A stretch of DNA of 16,989 nucleotides from a virus. The stretch lies in UHGV virus genome UHGV-0048692; one strand, 5' to 3'. A model generated the notes under the pieces. The model was not told the origin of the DNA. It made no database searches and saw only the letters and a program-made list of their open reading frames with translations. Both the position numbers and the translations under genes were made by a program. Positions 1-8,314 of this stretch are shown one piece after another. Numbering within the stretch: the stretch's first letter is position 1; each line of letters starts with the position of its first letter.

Positions 1-1
1 G

Positions 2-106
2 CAGCACCTGGCACGGCTGGGACGGAAGTCGCTGTCGTTCTCAAAATCGGTGGAGCTGCATGACAAAGTCATCGGGCATTATCTGAACATAAAACACTAT
101 CAATAA
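2..106 (+). CDS. 3' end of an upstream gene truncated by the window edge (...[34 protein letters not shown])
   Basis: Frame 2 is open from the window start to a TAA at 104-106. It is in the same frame as the next ORF. Confidence 0.3.
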
Positions 107-133
107 GTTGGAGTCATTACCCAAATTTTAGGT

Positions 134-772
134 TTGTCAGCCATTCCTTTAGCCGTTGGCGGTGCTACAGTTTTAGAGGTTCTCAAGAAGCTTAACGGGC
201 GTAAGATCGACATAGTCGAGAAAGCTAACGGTAGTGACAAAGTTAAGCTGAAAGTCGATGGTGAAGAGATTGTTTGCTCTGAAGATGTCGAAAAAATCGT
301 TAATGCCCCAGAGATTCGTAAGGCTGTTGACGCGTTTGTCAGACAGCCTCTGTTACAAGATGGTATCGACAATTTTGTGGTAAAAAAATCGCGCACCTCT
401 AAGAAAGAAATCCTCAAAATTCATAAAGATGAGGCAGAAGAGTTTAAGTCGCCAAAAGTTCTCTTTGAAACCAAAGAAGAAGTTGACGAATTTGAAACAA
501 CCGTGACATTCGTTTCGGCGCATACTGACAAAAAAAGTGGCTGGCGTGTTGAGTTTGGCGGTGAAAAGCGCAATGTCAGAATGGAAGATAATGAGTTCAT
601 CAAGCTTGTTACTGGACCAGACGCCCCCAAAATTTTTGGCGAATTGTTTGCTGTGAAGATGAAGAAAATTGTGAAAGATTCCGGTGGCCAGGTAGACGAA
701 AAGTTATCGATCATCAAAGTGGGTCGACACTTTGCCGCCAAAGATAGAAAAATAAAACCTGATGCGGATTAA
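134..772 (+). CDS. Hypothetical charged (K/E/D-rich) soluble protein, 212 aa; cargo gene
   Basis: Long ORF in AT-rich region with a TTG start at 134. No in-frame ATG until residue 150 and no well-spaced SD. Stop overlaps the next gene's start context (TAAAAATG). Confidence 0.5.
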   Translation: MSAIPLAVGGATVLEVLKKLNGRKIDIVEKANGSDKVKLKVDGEEIVCSEDVEKIVNAPEIRKAVDAFVRQPLLQDGIDNFVVKKSRTSKKEILKIHKDEAEEFKSPKVLFETKEEVDEFETTVTFVSAHTDKKSGWRVEFGGEKRNVRMEDNEFIKLVTGPDAPKIFGELFAVKMKKIVKDSGGQVDEKLSIIKVGRHFAAKDRKIKPDAD

Positions 773-774
773 AA

Positions 775-1038
775 ATGTCTATAGATATTAGTGTGTTAGG
801 ATGGTTGGGGCTGCTTGTTGCAGCTCCAGCTATATTTATAGGTGCTAGAGTGGCTATACGTAGCCTGCTCGATCGAGTTATTGTCGAAACAAAAGTTTCT
901 ATCACTTATACTGATGCAAACAAAAATGTCTATAAAACAAATATTTATATAAACAATGATGATGAGTTAATAAAGCTCATCGATGATATAGCAGAGAAAA
1001 ATAAGCGTGAGAGGAAGGAGTCAGCCTCTCATGCCTGA
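775..1038 (+). CDS. Small membrane protein, 87 aa (N-terminal TM helix, charged C-terminal tail)
   Basis: ATG 3 nt after the upstream stop (translational coupling). Hydrophobic segment VLGWLGLLVAAPAIFIGARVAI. Confidence 0.5.
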   Translation: MSIDISVLGWLGLLVAAPAIFIGARVAIRSLLDRVIVETKVSITYTDANKNVYKTNIYINNDDELIKLIDDIAEKNKRERKESASHA

Positions 1039-1447
1039 ACAAAAGAAAACAAGCGGTAAAGCAGTCGGTGTTACAGGTGGCGGCGGTGTAGGCCTTTTCC
1101 TAATAAAGCTGGCTAGCTTCATTACAGATCCAACATGGAAAGACCTTTACATTGCTTCAATACCGATGGTGTCAATTCTTTTAAGCGAAGTTTTTACTTT
1201 TGCATGGACGATTTATGCTGTTGATCCGCAAGAAATCAAACTGAAAAGGCGGTTGAAGGCTCTGAAGAAGCAAGCCGAAGCAGTTTTAAATGCACCATCG
1301 TCCCCTGTTTCTCCAGAAATGCGAGAGAAAGCGCAGGCTCGTTACGACGTGATCTGTGGAATTGAAATGGGAATTTACCCCCTCTCAATTGTAAATACGC
1401 TAGATGGAAAAGTATCCCCCACAGCGCAAACGCCGGACGTTAAATAG
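1031..1447 (+). CDS. Small membrane protein, about 138 aa (Gly-rich segment GVTGGGGVG, one TM helix, basic coiled-coil-like tail)
   Basis: ATG at 1031 preceded by GGAAGGAG (1013-1020). The ORF track's earlier start at 1007 is GTG without an SD. Overlaps the previous gene by 8 nt. Confidence 0.5.
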   Translation: MPEQKKTSGKAVGVTGGGGVGLFLIKLASFITDPTWKDLYIASIPMVSILLSEVFTFAWTIYAVDPQEIKLKRRLKALKKQAEAVLNAPSSPVSPEMREKAQARYDVICGIEMGIYPLSIVNTLDGKVSPTAQTPDVK

Positions 1448-1510
1448 CAGTTTCTACTTTGCATGACTATGCTGCATGAAATCGCATGATCGTTTGAGGA
1501 TCGTTTTTGC

Positions 1511-1538
1511 AAAAGCCCGCCAGAACTGGCGGGCTTTT
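1511..1538. terminator. Bidirectional rho-independent terminator (AAAA-GCCCGCC-loop-GGCGGGC-TTTT)
   Basis: Perfect 7-bp GC stem flanked by an A-tract and a T-tract, about 65 nt downstream of the + strand operon. Confidence 0.6.
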
Positions 1539-1583
1539 GCGTAGAGCATGCATCTGCATGAAAACCACTACATAAAGCGGGCA

Positions 1584-1602
1584 GGCGTGGCGGGGATACG
1601 AG
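1584..1602. other. cos-like site (putative cohesive-end region of the P2-like phage)
   Basis: GGCGTGGCGGGGATACGAG followed by CGCGCGC resembles the P2/P4 cohesive end as I recall it (GGCGAGGCGGGGAAAGCAC then TGCGCGC), about 14 of 19 identical. It lies in the correct orientation relative to the portal gene. Confidence 0.4.
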
Positions 1603-1689
1603 CGCGCGCAATAGGGTTATGTACAATAAATTTTTGACGATCTTCGAGTGTTATTAGCTTGAGGCTGTCAGGGAAAATGAATACAATAA

Positions 1690-1721
1690 GAAGCGCCTAG
1701 CAGAATGTTACTAGGCGCTTC
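1690..1721 (-). terminator. Hairpin terminator for the - strand mini-ORF operon
   Basis: Perfect 11-bp inverted repeat GAAGCGCCTAG / CTAGGCGCTTC with a 10-nt loop, followed on the - strand by T-rich TTATTGTATT; 34 nt downstream of the last mini-ORF stop. Confidence 0.45.
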
Positions 1722-1754
1722 GAATATATAACCTGTATGACTTTCTTAACCTAC

Positions 1755-1862
1755 TTATCTTTTTGATTTCTTCTTCGTATCATCGTGATCGAATACTTGG
1801 CGGGTAGGCGGCTTGCTGGGTGGTGGCGGCGGCGGTAAATTAGATTTCTCATTTTTGCTCAT
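1755..1862 (-). CDS. Polyproline mini-protein 3 (35 aa, MSKNEKSNLPPPPPPSKPPTRQVFDHDDTKKKSKR)
   Basis: ATG overlaps the 3' end of mini-ORF 2 by 14 nt. Shares the PPPPPP-x-KPP-T/I-R motif and charged tail with the other two. Confidence 0.35.
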   Translation of the reverse strand: MSKNEKSNLPPPPPPSKPPTRQVFDHDDTKKKSKR

Positions 1863-1983
1863 CTTTATTTTTCCTATTTTTTGGATCATTGCCATAGCTT
1901 TCTCTAACTAACCGAGTGATTGGCGGTTTAGGTGGTGGTGGTGGTGGTGCTTCATTTTTTTTAGGATTTTTGTGTTCGGTCAT
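1849..1983 (-). CDS. Polyproline mini-protein 2 (44 aa, MTEHKNPKKNEAPPPPPPKPPITRLVRESYGNDPKNRKNKDEQK)
   Basis: Internal ATG at 1983 of the 62-aa track ORF, chosen because it aligns with the paralogues. Overlaps mini-ORF 1 by 23 nt. Confidence 0.35.
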   Translation of the reverse strand: MTEHKNPKKNEAPPPPPPKPPITRLVRESYGNDPKNRKNKDEQK

Positions 1984-2098
1984 TTTTATCGTCCTTTCTG
2001 TCTCTTCGTAGTTGCCTTGCTTTTGAATCATCTTCAATAACGATCCTTCTTGCGGGTGGAGTAGGCCGAGGAGGTGGTGGCGGTAACGGTTTGGTCAT
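1961..2098 (-). CDS. Polyproline mini-protein 1 (45 aa, MTKPLPPPPPRPTPPARRIVIEDDSKARQLRRDRKDDKNDRTQKS)
   Basis: ATG overlaps the stop of the 216-aa gene (TAATG). AGGAG lies 8 nt upstream of the ATG. Below the 60-aa cutoff of the ORF track. Confidence 0.4.
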   Translation of the reverse strand: MTKPLPPPPPRPTPPARRIVIEDDSKARQLRRDRKDDKNDRTQKS

Positions 2099-2748
2099 TA
2101 AGTTCTCCTGACATTTTCAATAGGTATTATCAAATAGTTAGGGGCGTTATTTTTCCGCGGTGATGCTGCATCTAAATCAGCTAAAAGAAATATGACTACT
2201 GCTGCGATAATTGGAATCCATGACCAGACAAGATACTTTGTTGACTCAAATAGTTTACTGGAACGTTCCTCATTGATATTACTGTTCCAGCTAGCACACT
2301 CTCTGATTTCTTGATGAATAAACTCCCAAAGTTTATTATCAGGGTTATAACTTTCATCGTATGTAAGTCCATTGTCATCGCAATATTTTTTATATTTCAC
2401 TTCGTAACTAATCAGATCTATGTGATAATCATGCAATGCTTTAGGTGCAGGGCAATACTTAAATTCATTTCCCCATATGACTTGTTTCAACAGAATTGAT
2501 GATACAAGAACTAAGCCAAATGAAATTGCGGTACATAAAAATACTAGGCAAGCTAGCCTTGGGTGGGATTCATAAGATGTGTTTTTGGCGAGATAAGTGA
2601 GTATAGTTGCGGTAATGACAACTAATCCGAATTCGGCTTGAGCGCGAGTATGTATCTTGTCTTTATTCTCAATTTCTGAGAAATAAAGTTTTTCGTAAAA
2701 TTCTAATGCTTTATCCTTTTTCATTTTTAGATTCAGTGTGATGTCCAT
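2098..2748 (-). CDS. Hypothetical integral membrane protein, 216 aa (two predicted TM helices flanking a Cys/Tyr/Asp-rich domain); cargo gene
   Basis: AT-rich ORF directly downstream of the Q terminator. Hydrophobic segments LACLVFLCTAISFGLVLVSSILL and LVWSWIPIIAAVVIFLLADL. No fold recognised. Confidence 0.55.
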   Translation of the reverse strand: MDITLNLKMKKDKALEFYEKLYFSEIENKDKIHTRAQAEFGLVVITATILTYLAKNTSYESHPRLACLVFLCTAISFGLVLVSSILLKQVIWGNEFKYCPAPKALHDYHIDLISYEVKYKKYCDDNGLTYDESYNPDNKLWEFIHQEIRECASWNSNINEERSSKLFESTKYLVWSWIPIIAAVVIFLLADLDAASPRKNNAPNYLIIPIENVRRT

Positions 2749-2770
2749 GTATCAAACATATCACGATAAC

Positions 2771-2798
2771 AAAAAAAGAAAAGCCGCAATTCTGCGGC
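2771..2798 (-). terminator. Rho-independent terminator downstream of portal gene Q
   Basis: On the - strand, GCCGCA-GAAT-TGCGGC followed by TTTTCTTTTTTT, immediately after the Q stop codon. Confidence 0.6.
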
Positions 2799-2808
2799 TG
2801 TTGGGAAG

Positions 2809-3843
2809 CTAATCTAGCGATAATTCGTAATTTGTGAACCCTATCGCGTTTTTATCCAGCCATTTATTAAGCTCCTCAAAGCGTCTCTGAAGCGGAATAA
2901 GTTCATTACGAACGAATACGCGGCTGGCCTTCTCCACATCCCCAAATCCCCCAACATTATTAGGCATAATCCCCATCATCTGCGGTGGCACACGATGCGC
3001 CGCCATCATGTCATCCCGGCTCACGTTCTTGATGTTCAGAAACTCATCCTTCGCCGCGACTTCTGACAGAGGAATGATCTGAAGCCCATCCTTTTTGCCG
3101 TTAGGCGAGTACATAAACAGGTTGCGGAAGTTACCCGGTCCTTTGGCGCTTTTCATCGCATTGCGGAGGTTGTTCACATCCTCCTGGTTCTGCGCGGCAT
3201 CGGTCATGTACATGATGAAGCCTGCATGACTACCGTTAATGTAATACTTCCGGCGGAACAGCGTGGCGGACTCGTTGAGCAAAGCGGATGGGATGGCAGA
3301 AAGATAGCCGGGCAGGCCGTAGATCTCCTGATTAATATCCGGTTCCATCAGATGAAAAATGCTGCCTTTCGTGAACTGATACGGCTGGGTTGTCATACCG
3401 TATTGCACAAACCAGTAGGTATCCAGGTCTAACCCGCGTCGGGTATATTTTGCCAGAGCAGGCTCAAGGGCGATAACTTCACCGAAGCGGTTCGTGCGTT
3501 TCTCCAGATAGGCGTTACCAAATACCAGATAGTCCTGCACAAAACGTGAAAAAGCCTGCTGGCTGAGCAGCGGGTGAGGGATGTAGGTACTGGTCAGTAT
3601 GTTGCATTTCACCGCAATTGGTGAACTGTGATGCACGGCAGCGCGGAAGGTGCGCGCCAGTCCGTCAAAGCTTACTGGCGGCTCATACCAGCGATCTGTC
3701 TGTACGCATTCCACATAGTCCAGCAGTTCTCGGCGGTCCAGAACAGGAACGGGATCGCCGAAGCTGAATGCTTCGGCTGTAGTTTGACTTTTAAGCTGGA
3801 TCTGTTTCGTCGCCGAAGCGCGGTTCTTCTTACTCTTTCCCAT
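2809..3843 (-). CDS. Q: Portal (capsid) protein, P2 gpQ-like, 344 aa
   Basis: Size and position identical to P2 Q. ATG at 3843 overlaps the P stop (ATGA); the track's 3846 start is TTG. Confidence 0.9.
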   Translation of the reverse strand: MGKSKKNRASATKQIQLKSQTTAEAFSFGDPVPVLDRRELLDYVECVQTDRWYEPPVSFDGLARTFRAAVHHSSPIAVKCNILTSTYIPHPLLSQQAFSRFVQDYLVFGNAYLEKRTNRFGEVIALEPALAKYTRRGLDLDTYWFVQYGMTTQPYQFTKGSIFHLMEPDINQEIYGLPGYLSAIPSALLNESATLFRRKYYINGSHAGFIMYMTDAAQNQEDVNNLRNAMKSAKGPGNFRNLFMYSPNGKKDGLQIIPLSEVAAKDEFLNIKNVSRDDMMAAHRVPPQMMGIMPNNVGGFGDVEKASRVFVRNELIPLQRRFEELNKWLDKNAIGFTNYELSLD

Positions 3844-5609
3844 CAAAAAATCTCCACAATATTGCTGGTATTGGCGGACTCGCCCTGCAGCGGTTCGTTA
3901 AACAGTGCGTGCATTGTTGCCCAGGCCAGATCGGCGTGGCTGGCTTCTTCGCTGCGGCTGGCTTCATAGGTCGGGCGGTTGCCGCTGGCGGTGGTGGCGC
4001 GACGGATTGCCATGAATGACTGCGCTATGTCGGTGTGTCCGGCGTCAAACTCCAGACGGCGGTGGCTGATAATGTCGTAGGCCTTGAGTACCAGGGCGTT
4101 TTTAACATTGGGGTTGTAGACAAACTCCCGGACGGCAGGAAAGAACGCTTTCACGTTCTCGTAAACCCCGTGGCCGACCCCAGTTGAGTCGATGCCGATA
4201 TAGGTCACGTTGTACTGTTCGGTCAGTTTTTTGATGGCGTCAGCCTGGGCGCGGAAGTCCATCCCGCGCCACTGGTGACGCTCAAGAATGCGGAACTTAC
4301 CACCCGGCACGGCTGGCGGTGCCACCACTACGCATCCGGCGCTGTCGCCGTTTTGCGTACCTTTTGCCGGGTCATAACCGATCCACACTTCGCGCCAGCC
4401 AAACGGGCGCAGCGCCAGTGCATGAAAGTCGGTCCAGACTTCCCAACTGTCCACCATGCACGCCTGCAGCTCGCTGAGCGGAAACACGGACGCGAGATCG
4501 TCCACAAACTCGCACATCAGCAGGTTCTGGTATTCGTCCGGGCTGTACTCCATGCGCAACTGGTCAAGGTCGAACAGGTTGCAGCCGCCGCGCACCGCAT
4601 CTTCCACGGTGACTATCTGGCGGTATTGCCCGTCTGCGCACAGCAGGCCGGGGGCCAGATTGCTGTGGGACAGGTCGATGTCCACCTTGTCAGCTTTGTT
4701 GCGTCCACGGTTGAACAGCGCACCGGACCAGAACGGATAAGCACTGTGGGTCAGGCTGGATGGCGTGGAAAAATAGGTTTGTCGCCATTTCTTGTGAATA
4801 GCCATCCCGGAAGCCACTTTGCGCAGCTCCTGGAATTTCGGTATCCAGAAATATTCATCCAGATACAGGTTGCCGTGATAACTCTGGGCCGTGCGGGCAT
4901 TGGTGCCGAGGAAGTAAAGCGTGGCCCCATTAGGAAGCACCATCGGATCGCCTTTTAGCTCCACCTCGACTTCTTTGGCGAAGTCGATGATGTATTGTTT
5001 AAAGACGTGGGCCTGTGCCTTACTGGCGGAAAGGAAAATCTGGTTACGTCCGGTAAGCAGGGCGTCAATCAGGGCTTCACGGGCAAAGTAAAAGGTCGCG
5101 CCGATCTGGCGTGACTTCAGCAGGTTGCGGATGCGGTTGGTTTTTCCGGCTTCCCACCAGTGGCGCTGGTAGTTGAACATGGAGGAATGGAAGATTTCTT
5201 CCAGCTTCTCAATCTGCTCATCGGTGAAAACATTCTTTTCCGGCTGACGGCGTGGGCCTTTGTTGCGGTTGGCGACGTTAGGGTTTAAGTCGGCTTCGTT
5301 GCCGCCATTGTTAAACTTGCCGATCCGCGCGTGGCGCTCCGACTGGCGCGCCAGCAGGTCAATCTCTTTGAAATCTTTCCCTTCTTTGTGCTCCTTCATA
5401 ATGAGCTGGCAGTAGCGTGCGGCGGTGGTGAGCTGCATCTGATCCAGCGGCCCATAGTCACCCCACTTGTCGCGTTTTTTCCAGCTGTGAACGGTTGCAA
5501 CTTTCTCGCCCAGCATTTCAGCAATGCGGGCTACGCGGTATCCCTGAAAGTACAGCAGCATGGCCTGCCGACGGGGATCGAGATCTGCGGGTGTCAGTGT
5601 GGTGTTCAT
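3843..5609 (-). CDS. P: Terminase large (ATPase) subunit, P2 gpP-like, 588 aa
   Basis: Size and position as P2 P. Divergent from O across a short intergenic region, as in P2. Confidence 0.9.
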   Translation of the reverse strand: MNTTLTPADLDPRRQAMLLYFQGYRVARIAEMLGEKVATVHSWKKRDKWGDYGPLDQMQLTTAARYCQLIMKEHKEGKDFKEIDLLARQSERHARIGKFNNGGNEADLNPNVANRNKGPRRQPEKNVFTDEQIEKLEEIFHSSMFNYQRHWWEAGKTNRIRNLLKSRQIGATFYFAREALIDALLTGRNQIFLSASKAQAHVFKQYIIDFAKEVEVELKGDPMVLPNGATLYFLGTNARTAQSYHGNLYLDEYFWIPKFQELRKVASGMAIHKKWRQTYFSTPSSLTHSAYPFWSGALFNRGRNKADKVDIDLSHSNLAPGLLCADGQYRQIVTVEDAVRGGCNLFDLDQLRMEYSPDEYQNLLMCEFVDDLASVFPLSELQACMVDSWEVWTDFHALALRPFGWREVWIGYDPAKGTQNGDSAGCVVVAPPAVPGGKFRILERHQWRGMDFRAQADAIKKLTEQYNVTYIGIDSTGVGHGVYENVKAFFPAVREFVYNPNVKNALVLKAYDIISHRRLEFDAGHTDIAQSFMAIRRATTASGNRPTYEASRSEEASHADLAWATMHALFNEPLQGESANTSNIVEIF

Positions 5610-5655
5610 GGCACAAACCTACAGCCTTGAATGAAGGCTTTCCCCGCCTGCGGTT

Positions 5656-5673
5656 TGTGTGGTTGTCGGTACA
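5656..5673. promoter_or_regulatory. TGT-N12-ACA dyad (Ogr/Delta-type late-activator site) in the divergent P/O promoter region
   Basis: TGTgtggttgtcggtACA, centred about 55 nt upstream of a plausible O transcription start. P2 late promoters carry this dyad near -55. Confidence 0.4.
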
Positions 5674-5751
5674 AATACCGCGCATTGTTTCACTGCCCCC
5701 ATCACCGCAACCATAAGGCTCCAGTAAGTTTTTTCTAACGGAGCACGGCTC

Positions 5752-6585
5752 ATGACAGTGAAAGCAAAGCGTTTTCGCATCGGGGTGGAAGGTGCCACCA
5801 CCGACGGACGCGAAATCCAGCGTGAATGGCTGGAACAGATGGCAGCCAGCTACAACCCGGCGGTGTATACCGCGCTGATTAACCTTGAGCACATCAAGTC
5901 TTATCTGCCGGACAGCACCTTTAACCGCTACGGCAAGGTGACGGCGCTATTTGCTGAAGAAATCACGGAAGGTCCGCTGGCAGGCAAGATGGCGCTGTAT
6001 GCCGACGTTGAGCCAACGGAATCCCTGGTGGAACTGGTGAAAAAAGGCCAGAAATTATTCACCTCTATGGAAGTCAGCCCGAAGTTTGCTGATACGGGCA
6101 AAGCCTACCTGGTCGGCCTGGCTGCCACTGATGACCCTGCCAGTCTGGGCACTGAAATGCTGACATTCAGCGCCAGTGCAGCCCATAACCCGCTGGCAAA
6201 CCGCAAGCAGAATCCCGCCAATCTTTTTACCGCTGCAGAGGAAACGGTGATCGAACTGGAAGAAATCCAGGATGACAAACCGTCCCTGTTTGCCCGTGTC
6301 ACGGCGCTGTTCACCAAAAAAGAGCAGTCCGATGACGCCCGGTTCTCTGATGTGCATAAGGCCGTGGAACTGGTCGCCACTGAGCAGCAGAACCTGAGTG
6401 CGCGCACCGAAAAATCCCTGTCTGAGCAGGAAGAACGCCTGTCTGAGCTGGAGACTGCCCTGCAGGCACAGCAGACCGCCTTTAACGAACTGGTGGACAA
6501 GCTGAGCCAAGAAGACAGCCGCCAGGACTACCGCCAGCGTGCAACAGGTGGTAACGCCCCCGCTGACACTCTGACCAATTGCTGA
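5752..6585 (+). CDS. O: Capsid scaffolding protein, P2 gpO-like, 277 aa
   Basis: Position and size (P2 O about 284 aa). Acidic coiled-coil C-terminal part typical of scaffolds. Confidence 0.85.
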   Translation: MTVKAKRFRIGVEGATTDGREIQREWLEQMAASYNPAVYTALINLEHIKSYLPDSTFNRYGKVTALFAEEITEGPLAGKMALYADVEPTESLVELVKKGQKLFTSMEVSPKFADTGKAYLVGLAATDDPASLGTEMLTFSASAAHNPLANRKQNPANLFTAAEETVIELEEIQDDKPSLFARVTALFTKKEQSDDARFSDVHKAVELVATEQQNLSARTEKSLSEQEERLSELETALQAQQTAFNELVDKLSQEDSRQDYRQRATGGNAPADTLTNC

Positions 6586-6601
6586 TGGAGCACAAAACCT
6601 G

Positions 6602-7660
6602 ATGAAGAAGAATACCCGCTTTGCTTTTAACGCTTACCTGCAGCAACTGGCGCGTCTGAACGGTGTGGCAGTTGAAGAACTGTCCAGCAAGTTCACCGTA
6701 GAGCCGTCCGTGCAGCAGACATTGGAAGACCAGATCCAGCAGTCCGCCGCTTTCCTGACGCTGATTAACGTCACGCCAGTGACTGAGCAGTCCGGTCAGC
6801 TGCTGGGGTTGGGAGTTGGCAGCACCATTGCCGGAACCACTGATACCACCGCGAAAGAGCGTGAACCTATCGATCCGACGCTGATGGTCGATGTGGAATA
6901 TAAATGCGAGCAGACCAACTTTGACACGGTACTGACCTACGCGAAGCTGGACCTGTGGGCGAAGTTTCAGGATTTTCAGGTGCGTATCCGTGACGCCATC
7001 GTGAAACGTCAGGCACTGGACCGCATCATGATCGGCTTTAACGGCGTGAAGCGTGCGAAAACCTCCAACCGTAGCGAAAACCCGTTACTGCAGGATGTGA
7101 ATAAAGGCTGGCTGCAGAAAATCCGTGAGGATGCACCGGATCACGTCATGGGCAGCACCACCACGGGCGGTGAAACCACACCGGGTGCGGTGAAAGTCGG
7201 GAAAGGTGGCGAATATGCCAACCTGGACGCCGTGGTGATAGATGCCGTTAATGAGCTTATCGACGTGGTCTATCAGGACGATGACGATCTGGTGGTGATT
7301 TGCGGTCGTGAACTGCTGTCTGACAAGTATTTCCCGCTGGTCAACAAAGAGCAGGAAAACAGTGAAAAACTGGCTGCCGATATGATCATCAGTCAGAAAC
7401 GCATGGGTGGCCTGCAGGCCGTGCGTGCGCCGTTCTTCCCGCCGAATGCGCTGCTGATCACCCGTCTGGATAACCTGTCCATCTACTGGCAGGAAGACAC
7501 CCGCCGCCGTTCAGTTATCGACAACCCGAAACGTGACCGGATTGAAAACTTTGAATCCGTTAACGAAGCCTATGTGGTTGAGGACTACCGCTGCGCCGCA
7601 CTGGTGGAAAACATCCAGATTGGTGATTTCAGCGCCGCCGCAGCCGAAACCGGAGCGTAA
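6602..7660 (+). CDS. N: Major capsid protein, P2 gpN-like, 352 aa
   Basis: Position after O and size (P2 N about 357 aa). Confidence 0.9.
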   Translation: MKKNTRFAFNAYLQQLARLNGVAVEELSSKFTVEPSVQQTLEDQIQQSAAFLTLINVTPVTEQSGQLLGLGVGSTIAGTTDTTAKEREPIDPTLMVDVEYKCEQTNFDTVLTYAKLDLWAKFQDFQVRIRDAIVKRQALDRIMIGFNGVKRAKTSNRSENPLLQDVNKGWLQKIREDAPDHVMGSTTTGGETTPGAVKVGKGGEYANLDAVVIDAVNELIDVVYQDDDDLVVICGRELLSDKYFPLVNKEQENSEKLAADMIISQKRMGGLQAVRAPFFPPNALLITRLDNLSIYWQEDTRRRSVIDNPKRDRIENFESVNEAYVVEDYRCAALVENIQIGDFSAAAAETGA

Positions 7661-7663
7661 TCC

Positions 7664-8314
7664 ATGAGCCTGAGTCCCGCACGGCAGCATCGCCTGCGCG
7701 TTCAGGCTGAACAGGCCGCCCGCGAGGGCGGCAGTGTTCGCCACGCATCGGGCTATGACCTGATGCTGCTGCAACTGGCGGAAGACCGCCGCCGTCTCAA
7801 GGGCGTTCAGTCCACGGTCAAAAAAGCGGAAATCAAGGTGGAGCTGCTGCCGAAGTACGCCGCCTGGGCGGAGGGCGTCCTGGCTGCCGGAGGCGCTCAA
7901 CAGGATGACGTGCTGATGTACGTGATGCTGTGGCGCATTGATGCCGGAGATTATGCCGGGGCGCTGGAGATCGGGCGTCATGCCCTGCGTCATGGCTGGG
8001 TGATGCCGCTGGGTAACCGCAACGTGCAGACCGTGCTGGCAGAGGAAATGGCAGATGCAGCGCAGAGCGCAATGCTTGCCGCCACCGACTTTGATGCCGA
8101 TCTGTTGCTGCAGACGCTGGAGCTGACAGACGGTCTGGATATGCCGGACCAGTCACGGGCGCGTCTGCATAAAGCGATTGGCGCTGTCCTGAGTGAAAGC
8201 AATCCGGCTTCCGCCCTTAATCATCTCAACCATGCGTTACAGCTCGATCCCCGCTGTGGCGTGAAAAAAGACAAACAGCAGCTGGAGCGCAGACTGCGCA
8301 ATGACAGCCGCTGA
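7664..8314 (+). CDS. M: Terminase small (endonuclease) subunit, P2 gpM-like, 216 aa
   Basis: Position after N. Arg-rich N-terminus. Confidence 0.8.
   Translation: MSLSPARQHRLRVQAEQAAREGGSVRHASGYDLMLLQLAEDRRRLKGVQSTVKKAEIKVELLPKYAAWAEGVLAAGGAQQDDVLMYVMLWRIDAGDYAGALEIGRHALRHGWVMPLGNRNVQTVLAEEMADAAQSAMLAATDFDADLLLQTLELTDGLDMPDQSRARLHKAIGAVLSESNPASALNHLNHALQLDPRCGVKKDKQQLERRLRNDSR

Follow-up and report, generated by a model that had tools for sequence, protein, structure and literature searches.

Phages 186 and P2 and the satellite P4 have 19-nucleotide 5′ cohesive ends, and P2 and P4 share a core of about 55 bp that PMC3931495 and PMC5694545 attribute to Ziermann and Calendar (1990). The distance between the cohesive-end site (cos) and the portal gene is 167 bp in P2 and 176 bp in 186. 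Other members of the P2 family harbor accessory genes in this interval: (i) Pseudomonas phage phiCTX carries the toxin gene ctx between cosL (1-21) and Q (1417-2469), with a cos-Q spacing of 1395 bp and two annotated terminators separating ctx from Q, and (ii) Salmonella phage Fels-2 (NC_010463) carries an open reading frame (ORF) of 565 amino acids (STM2723.1). The cos of the viable phage SEN8 has been published as the 19-mer GGCGTGGCGGGGATACGAG (PMC5427200). The cos-adjacent gpA-gpQ locus is a known hotspot, with 1,650 arrangements in 18,150 Escherichia coli loci (Rousset et al. 2022, PMC9122126), and this work was extended in PMC13586616. In the study of phiRSY1 (PMC5694545), which cites Dodd and Egan (1996) and Nakayama (1999) on this point, a hotspot of foreign genes was also suggested to lie between cosL and the gpQ homologue. 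These surveys concern the same locus as the one analyzed here, but the gpA-gpQ interval was treated as one and the two sides of cos were not separated. None of the systems validated in them equals the cargo described below.

The present analysis concerns the UHGV virus genome UHGV-0048692 (16,989 nucleotides, hereafter the window), which corresponds to the late-gene side of a P2-family prophage. The RefSeq record NZ_CM132257.1 (E. coli 22AR0118) is 100% identical to it over the stretch searched (1450-2850). It is very probable that positions 1458-1611 (plus strand) are the cos of a P2-family (Peduoviridae) phage of the Fels-2 type and that a swappable accessory module extends from 1612 onward. 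Both the cos sequence and the layout with cargo genes flanking cos are already known and usual in this lineage.

The cos island in the P2 family

The original prediction had noticed a close resemblance between 1584-1609 and the P2/P4 cohesive-end region and proposed an alignment with the P2 and P4 cos regions as a check. The sequence GGCGTGGCGGGGATACGAGCGCGCGC was confirmed at 1584-1609. The predicted 19-nucleotide 5′ cohesive end, GGCGTGGCGGGGATACGAG (1584-1602, plus strand), is identical (19/19) to that of Fels-2 and of SEN8, and a longer string, GGCGTGGCGGGGATACGAGCGCGCGCAA, is identical in Fels-2; it is GC-rich and of the GGCG(A/T)GGCGGGG... type. The actual nick positions and the cleavage are predictions by homology. 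The circular junctions of P2, 186 and P4 were rebuilt from records with annotated cohesive ends. In register with these annotated ends, the overhang shares 15/19 positions with 186 and 14/19 with both P2 and P4. The ungapped alignment of the core (-45 to +26, all offsets being counted from the first base of the 19-mer) gives 52/71 identical positions with 186, 45/71 with P2 and 49/71 with P4. The window, 186, P2 and P4 share a left flank, TGCATxAAAACC...AAGCGGGC(A/G), and a right flank, GCGCGC. The suspected resemblance is therefore borne out by an ungapped and in-register alignment that includes the flanks.

The similarity to the closest phages is much more extended. The segment 1460-1611 is 90-95% identical to Fels-2-type phages (the best records having E-values between 1e-49 and 1e-59). 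With Fels-2 itself, its identity is 92.1% (E-value 2e-52); the 19-mer is the same, the segment 1461-1611 is 92% identical, and the hairpin and the TGCAT repeats described below match. This segment was found in 1275 of the 5426 complete E. coli genomes, and a cos profile searched with nhmmer matched 60 prophages of different species (E-values of 1e-12 to 1e-21). The 19-mer site occurs only once in the window. Furthermore, it is located where a P2-family cos is expected, with the replication/SOS end on one side and, on the other, a portal gene transcribed toward cos; in intact relatives, the gene order is A - DinI - (cargo) - cos - (cargo) - Q - P. In the window, the Q portal gene (homologue of P2 Q and 186 W; 2809-3846, minus strand) is identified by the Pfam domain Phage_portal (E-value 3e-18) and by its RefSeq annotation. 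Both terminase genes of the P2 type are also present: the large subunit, a gpP homologue expected to cut cos (3843-5609, minus strand; Pfam Terminase_5, Terminase_6N and Terminase_6C), and the small subunit, a gpM homologue (7664-8314, plus strand; Pfam Phage_term_smal, E-value 9.1e-41).

Could 1584-1609 be a chance GC-rich resemblance, the packaging site being located elsewhere or the packaging following a headful (pac) mechanism? When one mismatch is tolerated, the 12-mer GGCGWGGCGGGG is found at least once in 31 of 200 shuffled versions of the window; therefore, this GC-rich motif alone is weak evidence. Chance does not account for the 152-bp block that is 90-95% identical to Fels-2-type phages, for the in-register alignment to the ends of P2, 186 and P4 with their flanks and TGCAT repeats, for the conservation in 59 species, or for a P2/186-like position before the portal gene in an element encoding a P2-type terminase. 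This explanation is effectively refuted and its probability is close to nil. As judged from this extended match, which goes beyond chance, the prediction of cos is correct.

The extent of the cos island was delimited by using 80 loci, each from the genome of a different species and coding for a relative of Q; a small nhmmer profile served to locate cos in them. In the alignment of 59 of these species-representative prophages, the columns are highly conserved between -126 and +26 (1458-1610), and conservation falls to the background from +27. The pairwise breakpoints of homology (1460/1461 and 1611) give similar limits. Homology with Fels-2 covers 1461-1611 and next resumes at 2894, and homology with the prophage of E. 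coli PigCaeca_2 (L008) covers 122-1611 and resumes at 2856. The right border thus corresponds to the nine bases CGCGCGCAA (1603-1611, plus strand), which are conserved and at the end of which homology with both elements stops. On the right side of the overhang, cos is therefore predicted to extend by just 7-8 bp. P4 carries the identical nine bases directly after its own 19-mer and before its own hotspot. Since phages and P4 satellites share the same right edge (+26), cos may serve as a homology anchor for cargo swapping.

This common border could suggest that cos and the right cargo are a P4-like satellite inserted beside the phage, all the more so as the gop-beta-cII cargo of P4 starts directly after CGCGCGCAA. 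However, no P4 gene (psu, delta, sid, alpha or int) was found beside the site. Moreover, in intact relatives the region is continuous with Fels-2-type DinI and A genes on the left and with Q and P on the right. A satellite origin thus retains hardly any probability, and the site is better explained as the cos of the P2-family prophage itself.

Within the island, TGCAT repeats are found at -124, -111, -35 and -29 relative to the nick. Those at about -124, -111 and -29 are common to the window, Fels-2, 186, P2 and P4, and P2, 186 and P4 have another one at -101. The related motif GCATGA is present at 1461, 1474, 1484 and 1556, that is, four copies on the same strand within 100 bp compared to 17 across the whole 17-kb window. 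These TGCAT/GCATGA repeats (1459-1561) are presumably the binding sites of the terminase.

The left part of the island also includes a perfect GC-rich hairpin (1511-1538) flanked by an A-run and a T-run, which has the shape of a bidirectional terminator. Its folding energy is -32.0 kcal/mol on the plus strand (z -8.3, all z-scores being calculated against dinucleotide shuffles) and -27.9 kcal/mol on the minus strand (z -7.5). In the 59 loci, the stem columns are mostly conserved at 83-97% and the loop columns at 42-69%. A GC-rich palindrome is found at the same offset in 186 and P4, without T-runs, whereas P2 has no GC-rich palindrome at this position (-70 to -45). In 186, the annotated terminator t95b is located upstream of cos. 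Since the 1511-1538 hairpin lies within the conserved cos island, it may just as well be part of cos as act as an insulator.

The right cargo and its terminators

According to the original prediction, about 1.2 kb of AT-rich cargo separates cos from Q, in contrast with P2, in which Q would end about 0.1 kb from the cohesive end. The distance in P2, 167 bp, is larger than assumed. In the window, the gap between the end of the 19-mer (1602) and the stop codon of Q is 1206 bp, and the variable right cargo segment of this cosL-to-Q hotspot (1612-2855, minus strand) has several features of an accessory segment: (i) its G+C content is atypical of the phage backbone (32-45% across 1601-2900 compared to 51-64% in the Q and P genes), (ii) it is rare, as only six of the 5426 complete E. 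coli genomes match 80% or more of the query (compared to 1275 for the cos island), and (iii) its content varies between close relatives that share conserved anchors, as indicated by the breakpoints at 1460/1461, 1611 and 2856.

The presence of cargo at this position is not an exception to the P2 plan but the rule in this lineage. In the 60 prophages with a clear cos match, the cos-to-Q spacing has a median of 1667 bp and extremes of 148 and 3499 bp (in a few cases a frameshifted Q gene makes the distance too large, without any effect on the overall picture). It exceeds 500 bp in 51 of them, and only nine have the short spacing of the P2/186 type (148-250 bp). The comparison of spacings across P2-like genomes thus confirms that P2 has a short interval and reveals that long ones are usual among its relatives. 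The organization is reminiscent of that of phiCTX. However, transcription of ctx is directed away from cos and that of the cargo operon of the window toward it, the genes are unrelated and the overhang of phiCTX is 21 nucleotides long. Fels-2 and SEN8 carry other cargo on both sides of cos and, unlike them, the window comes from a copy that is hosted by E. coli and truncated by IS1.

The right cargo (1755-2724) is organized as a translationally coupled operon on the minus strand. It comprises a gene encoding a predicted helical membrane protein of 208 amino acids with three hydrophobic segments (2098-2724; WP_024195660; phrog_36961, unknown function, E-value 4.8e-22), followed by three tandem microprotein genes with overlapping frames. 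The start codon of the first of these polyproline microproteins, ppA (1961-2098, 45 amino acids), and the stop codon of the membrane protein gene overlap (TAATG). The second one, ppB (1849-1983), has 44 amino acids, and its RefSeq version has 60 (WP_061090207). The third one, ppC (1755-1862, 35 amino acids, MSKNEKSNLPPPPPPSKPPTRQVFDHDDTKKKSKR), is conserved in Cedecea neteri and Pantoea stewartii and harbors a conserved motif, FDHDD(T/V)..KK, at its end. Each microprotein of the window has a run of at least six prolines; in the other two genomes the runs have at least four prolines, and mostly 7-12. Because of these consecutive prolines, production of the microproteins would depend on translation assisted by EF-P.

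Homologues of the membrane protein form 20 clusters at 90% identity, and all their named members are from Enterobacterales. All three polyproline ORFs are kept in C. neteri (whose membrane protein is 71% identical) and in P. stewartii (56%), which argues that they are real genes. The operon of P. stewartii sits in a rearranged prophage remnant. Its location in a P4-like satellite was considered and ruled out, as a wider view revealed a P2-like remnant with tail genes and Ogr. A 46-amino-acid extended version of a polyproline ORF yielded no candidate homologue in databases, in which such small ORFs are probably rarely called. For the right cargo proteins, Pfam gave only noise below the threshold and PADLOC gave no match. 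The AlphaFold model of the 208-amino-acid protein is an all-helical bundle (predicted local distance difference test, pLDDT, of 85), and a fold search of the PDB with this model retrieved only generic long-helix bundles of the BAR-domain type (among the best ten, E-values of at least 0.06 and template modeling scores <0.4). That the right cargo is an undescribed phage-borne accessory system, possibly involved in superinfection exclusion or defense, is a tentative and rather unlikely proposal.

The membrane protein gene directly follows the portal gene, in the same orientation and on the Q side of cos, in prophages of Hafnia and Cedecea as well. This synteny would fit another explanation, in which the 1.2 kb would not be acquired cargo but a lineage-specific core component of packaging, e.g., an extended cos or a head accessory gene. 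However, 1269 of the 1275 E. coli genomes that carry the cos island are devoid of this cargo, and tblastn detected no homologue of it in any of the 80 species-representative loci. Unrelated genes are found in its place in Fels-2, PigCaeca_2 and phiCTX, its composition is atypical, and the cos-Q interval is as short as 148-250 bp in nine prophages. A core role is therefore very improbable, and these data favor a swappable cargo.

Two other hairpins delimit the right cargo. The first one (1690-1721, minus strand; 13-bp stem with seven GC pairs, tail TTATTGTATT; -23.4 kcal/mol, z -6.6) would be the terminator closing the cargo operon before cos. The second one (2782-2799, minus strand; -11.7 kcal/mol, z -3.8) consists of a 7-bp stem followed by TTTCTTTTTT, ten nucleotides past the stop codon of Q, the sequence beyond the folded segment reading UUUUCUUUUUUU. 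It would be the terminator of the late P-Q operon and is the positional equivalent of the annotated tQ of P2 and tW of 186. The original prediction placed it at 2771-2798, close to where it was found, and the two hairpins that it described as bracketing cos (1511-1538 and 1690-1721) are both present and fold far beyond shuffled sequences. As to the proposal that each cargo block is insulated on every side, terminator-like hairpins do bracket the blocks, but the one at 1511-1538 belongs to the conserved cos island. Furthermore, terminators are found at the ends of converging operons in 186, P2 and P4 (tQ/tW, t95b). A cos flanked by terminators on both sides is the usual arrangement of the P2/186 type, whether or not cargo is present.

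The post-Q sequence differs in relatives that have other cargo, and each of them has its own inverted repeat there, able to form a hairpin. It should also be emphasized that the last ~15 codons of Q (2809-2855) and the post-Q terminator lie within the variable segment. Prophages with another cargo are again homologous to the window only from 2856 (PigCaeca_2) or 2894 (Fels-2), so that swaps replace the C-terminus of the portal protein too.

The left cargo and the independence of the two sides

On the other side of cos, three genes form a module on the plus strand. The first one (134-772) has lost its 5′ end, corresponding to the first ~81 codons, because of IS1; its intact form has 297 amino acids. 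The truncated protein matches the PADLOC profile PDC-S42 (E-value 5.6e-28, profile positions 102-293 of 302), the intact copy of PigCaeca_2 gives an E-value of 7e-44, and the gene belongs to phrog_3243, of unknown function. By sequence similarity, this gene product is thus a homologue of the candidate defense protein PDC-S42. The second gene (775-1038) encodes a small predicted membrane protein of 87 amino acids with a hydrophobic N-terminus (from the ORF list; WP_000020716), and the third one (1031-1447) encodes a predicted membrane protein of 138 amino acids (WP_001115044); neither has any match in Pfam or PADLOC. The three-gene module is intact at positions 5430-6998 of the PigCaeca_2 locus, in the record NZ_CP038857.1 (3095129-3096697). 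An arrangement that includes WP_001115044, WP_000020716 and WP_061090207 is listed in Table S5 of Rousset et al. (PMC9122126). The left cargo was also compared to the validated system “hp+hp+hp” of Rousset et al. (three genes without predicted domain), which was rejected as its proteins are unrelated and larger.

The left and right modules assort independently among relatives. The intact-looking prophage of E. coli 23AR0998 (L007), which is located at about 3.11-3.13 Mb of NZ_CM132249.1 and encodes CI, CII, Fil, A and a DinI-like protein, carries the same right cargo but has nothing between DinI and cos. Conversely, the left cargo (297, 87 and 138 amino acids) is shared with the prophage of PigCaeca_2, in which the right cargo differs and consists of a single ORF of 89 amino acids. 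Therefore, the published single hotspot is made of two sub-hotspots located around the 153-bp cos island.

Taken together, these data suggest how the locus would work in an intact phage. The terminase (gpP and gpM) would bind the left part of the island, with its TGCAT repeats and GC-rich palindrome, and would then make staggered nicks leaving the 19-nucleotide 5′ overhang at 1584-1602. From 1612, the cosL-to-Q hotspot would be occupied by the swappable four-ORF operon of the minus strand with its own terminator (1690-1721). The other half of the gpA-gpQ hotspot, to the left of cos, would be occupied by the three-gene module headed by the PDC-S42 homologue. After cutting of cos, the two modules would sit at the two ends of the virion DNA. 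The proposal that one cargo block is present at each end is thus supported for a packaged genome of the same type. In this scheme, we infer the binding of the terminase to the repeats, the function of the terminators and any function of the cargo.

Some points weigh against this interpretation. Our search found no physical mapping of the ends of any phage with the exact overhang GGCGTGGCGGGGATACGAG, and the cos of Fels-2 and SEN8 were annotated by similarity. The overhang differs at four to five of its 19 positions from the experimentally determined ends of 186 and P2. Terminator function is predicted solely from the presence of a hairpin and a T-run. Finally, no promoter of the cargo operon was found: a consensus scan was no richer in candidates than shuffled sequence, and no credible promoter was detected between tQ and the first cargo ORF.

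An IS1-truncated remnant

The left end of the window (1-121, plus strand) is the right end of an IS1, including the 3′ end of the transposase gene and the terminal inverted repeat. An IS1A-family transposase annotated in NZ_CM132257.1 ends at position 106 of the window, and homology with the intact PigCaeca_2 prophage begins at 122; we take position 121 to be the end of the inverted repeat. Upstream of IS1, the RefSeq annotation of the source chromosome includes ybjI′, ybjJ, rcdA, a phage integrase gene and a second, inverted IS1. This second copy is located in ybjI, and the integrase/rcdA/ybjJ/ybjI′ segment is inverted between both IS1 copies (L006, 5492-10657). The early region, from the repressor (CI) gene through the replication gene A and the DinI-like gene, is gone. 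Since IS1 has removed this region, no phage can be induced from the element itself. This prophage copy is a defective remnant, whose cos is intact in sequence but not usable by the element alone. Scans of positions 1-3000 with Rfam (E-value of 1 or less) and of the whole window for tRNAs found nothing.

It is therefore rather probable that this cos is a dead relic and that, together with the two cargo blocks, it is chromosomal DNA in decay, without any packaging role in this strain. IS1 replaces everything from int to the middle of the first left cargo gene, the int-side segment is inverted between the two IS1 copies, and no repressor, replication or DinI/Tum-type gene is left at the locus. 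This explanation is compatible with the identification of a Fels-2-type cos flanked by swappable cargo rather than opposed to it. The cos island is identical to that of PEC148 over 1450-1609, the identity is 99.8% with PigCaeca_2 (122-1611) and 99.3% with the intact-looking prophage of 23AR0998 (1460-3100), and none of the terminase, portal and right-cargo ORFs is truncated. Because of this high identity and of these full-length ORFs, the deletion looks recent. Furthermore, a co-resident P2-type helper could in principle still recognize cos.

The source chromosome NZ_CM132257.1 has a second location matching the cos-region query. This second cos-like match is probably carried by another P2-family prophage or by a satellite, which could supply terminase in trans.

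As a discovery, these results have little weight, since they re-identify a textbook P2-family cos and a published accessory/defense hotspot. Their contribution concerns annotation. The Fels-2-type cos island is delimited to about 153 bp and requires no more than 7-8 bp on the right of the overhang; the cos-adjacent hotspot appears as two independently assorting halves with a sharp boundary at +26/+27; and this prophage is recognized as a remnant truncated by IS1. This work also points to two uncharacterized modules as candidates for anti-phage screens: (i) the three-gene set of the PDC-S42 type and (ii) the membrane protein with its three polyproline microproteins.

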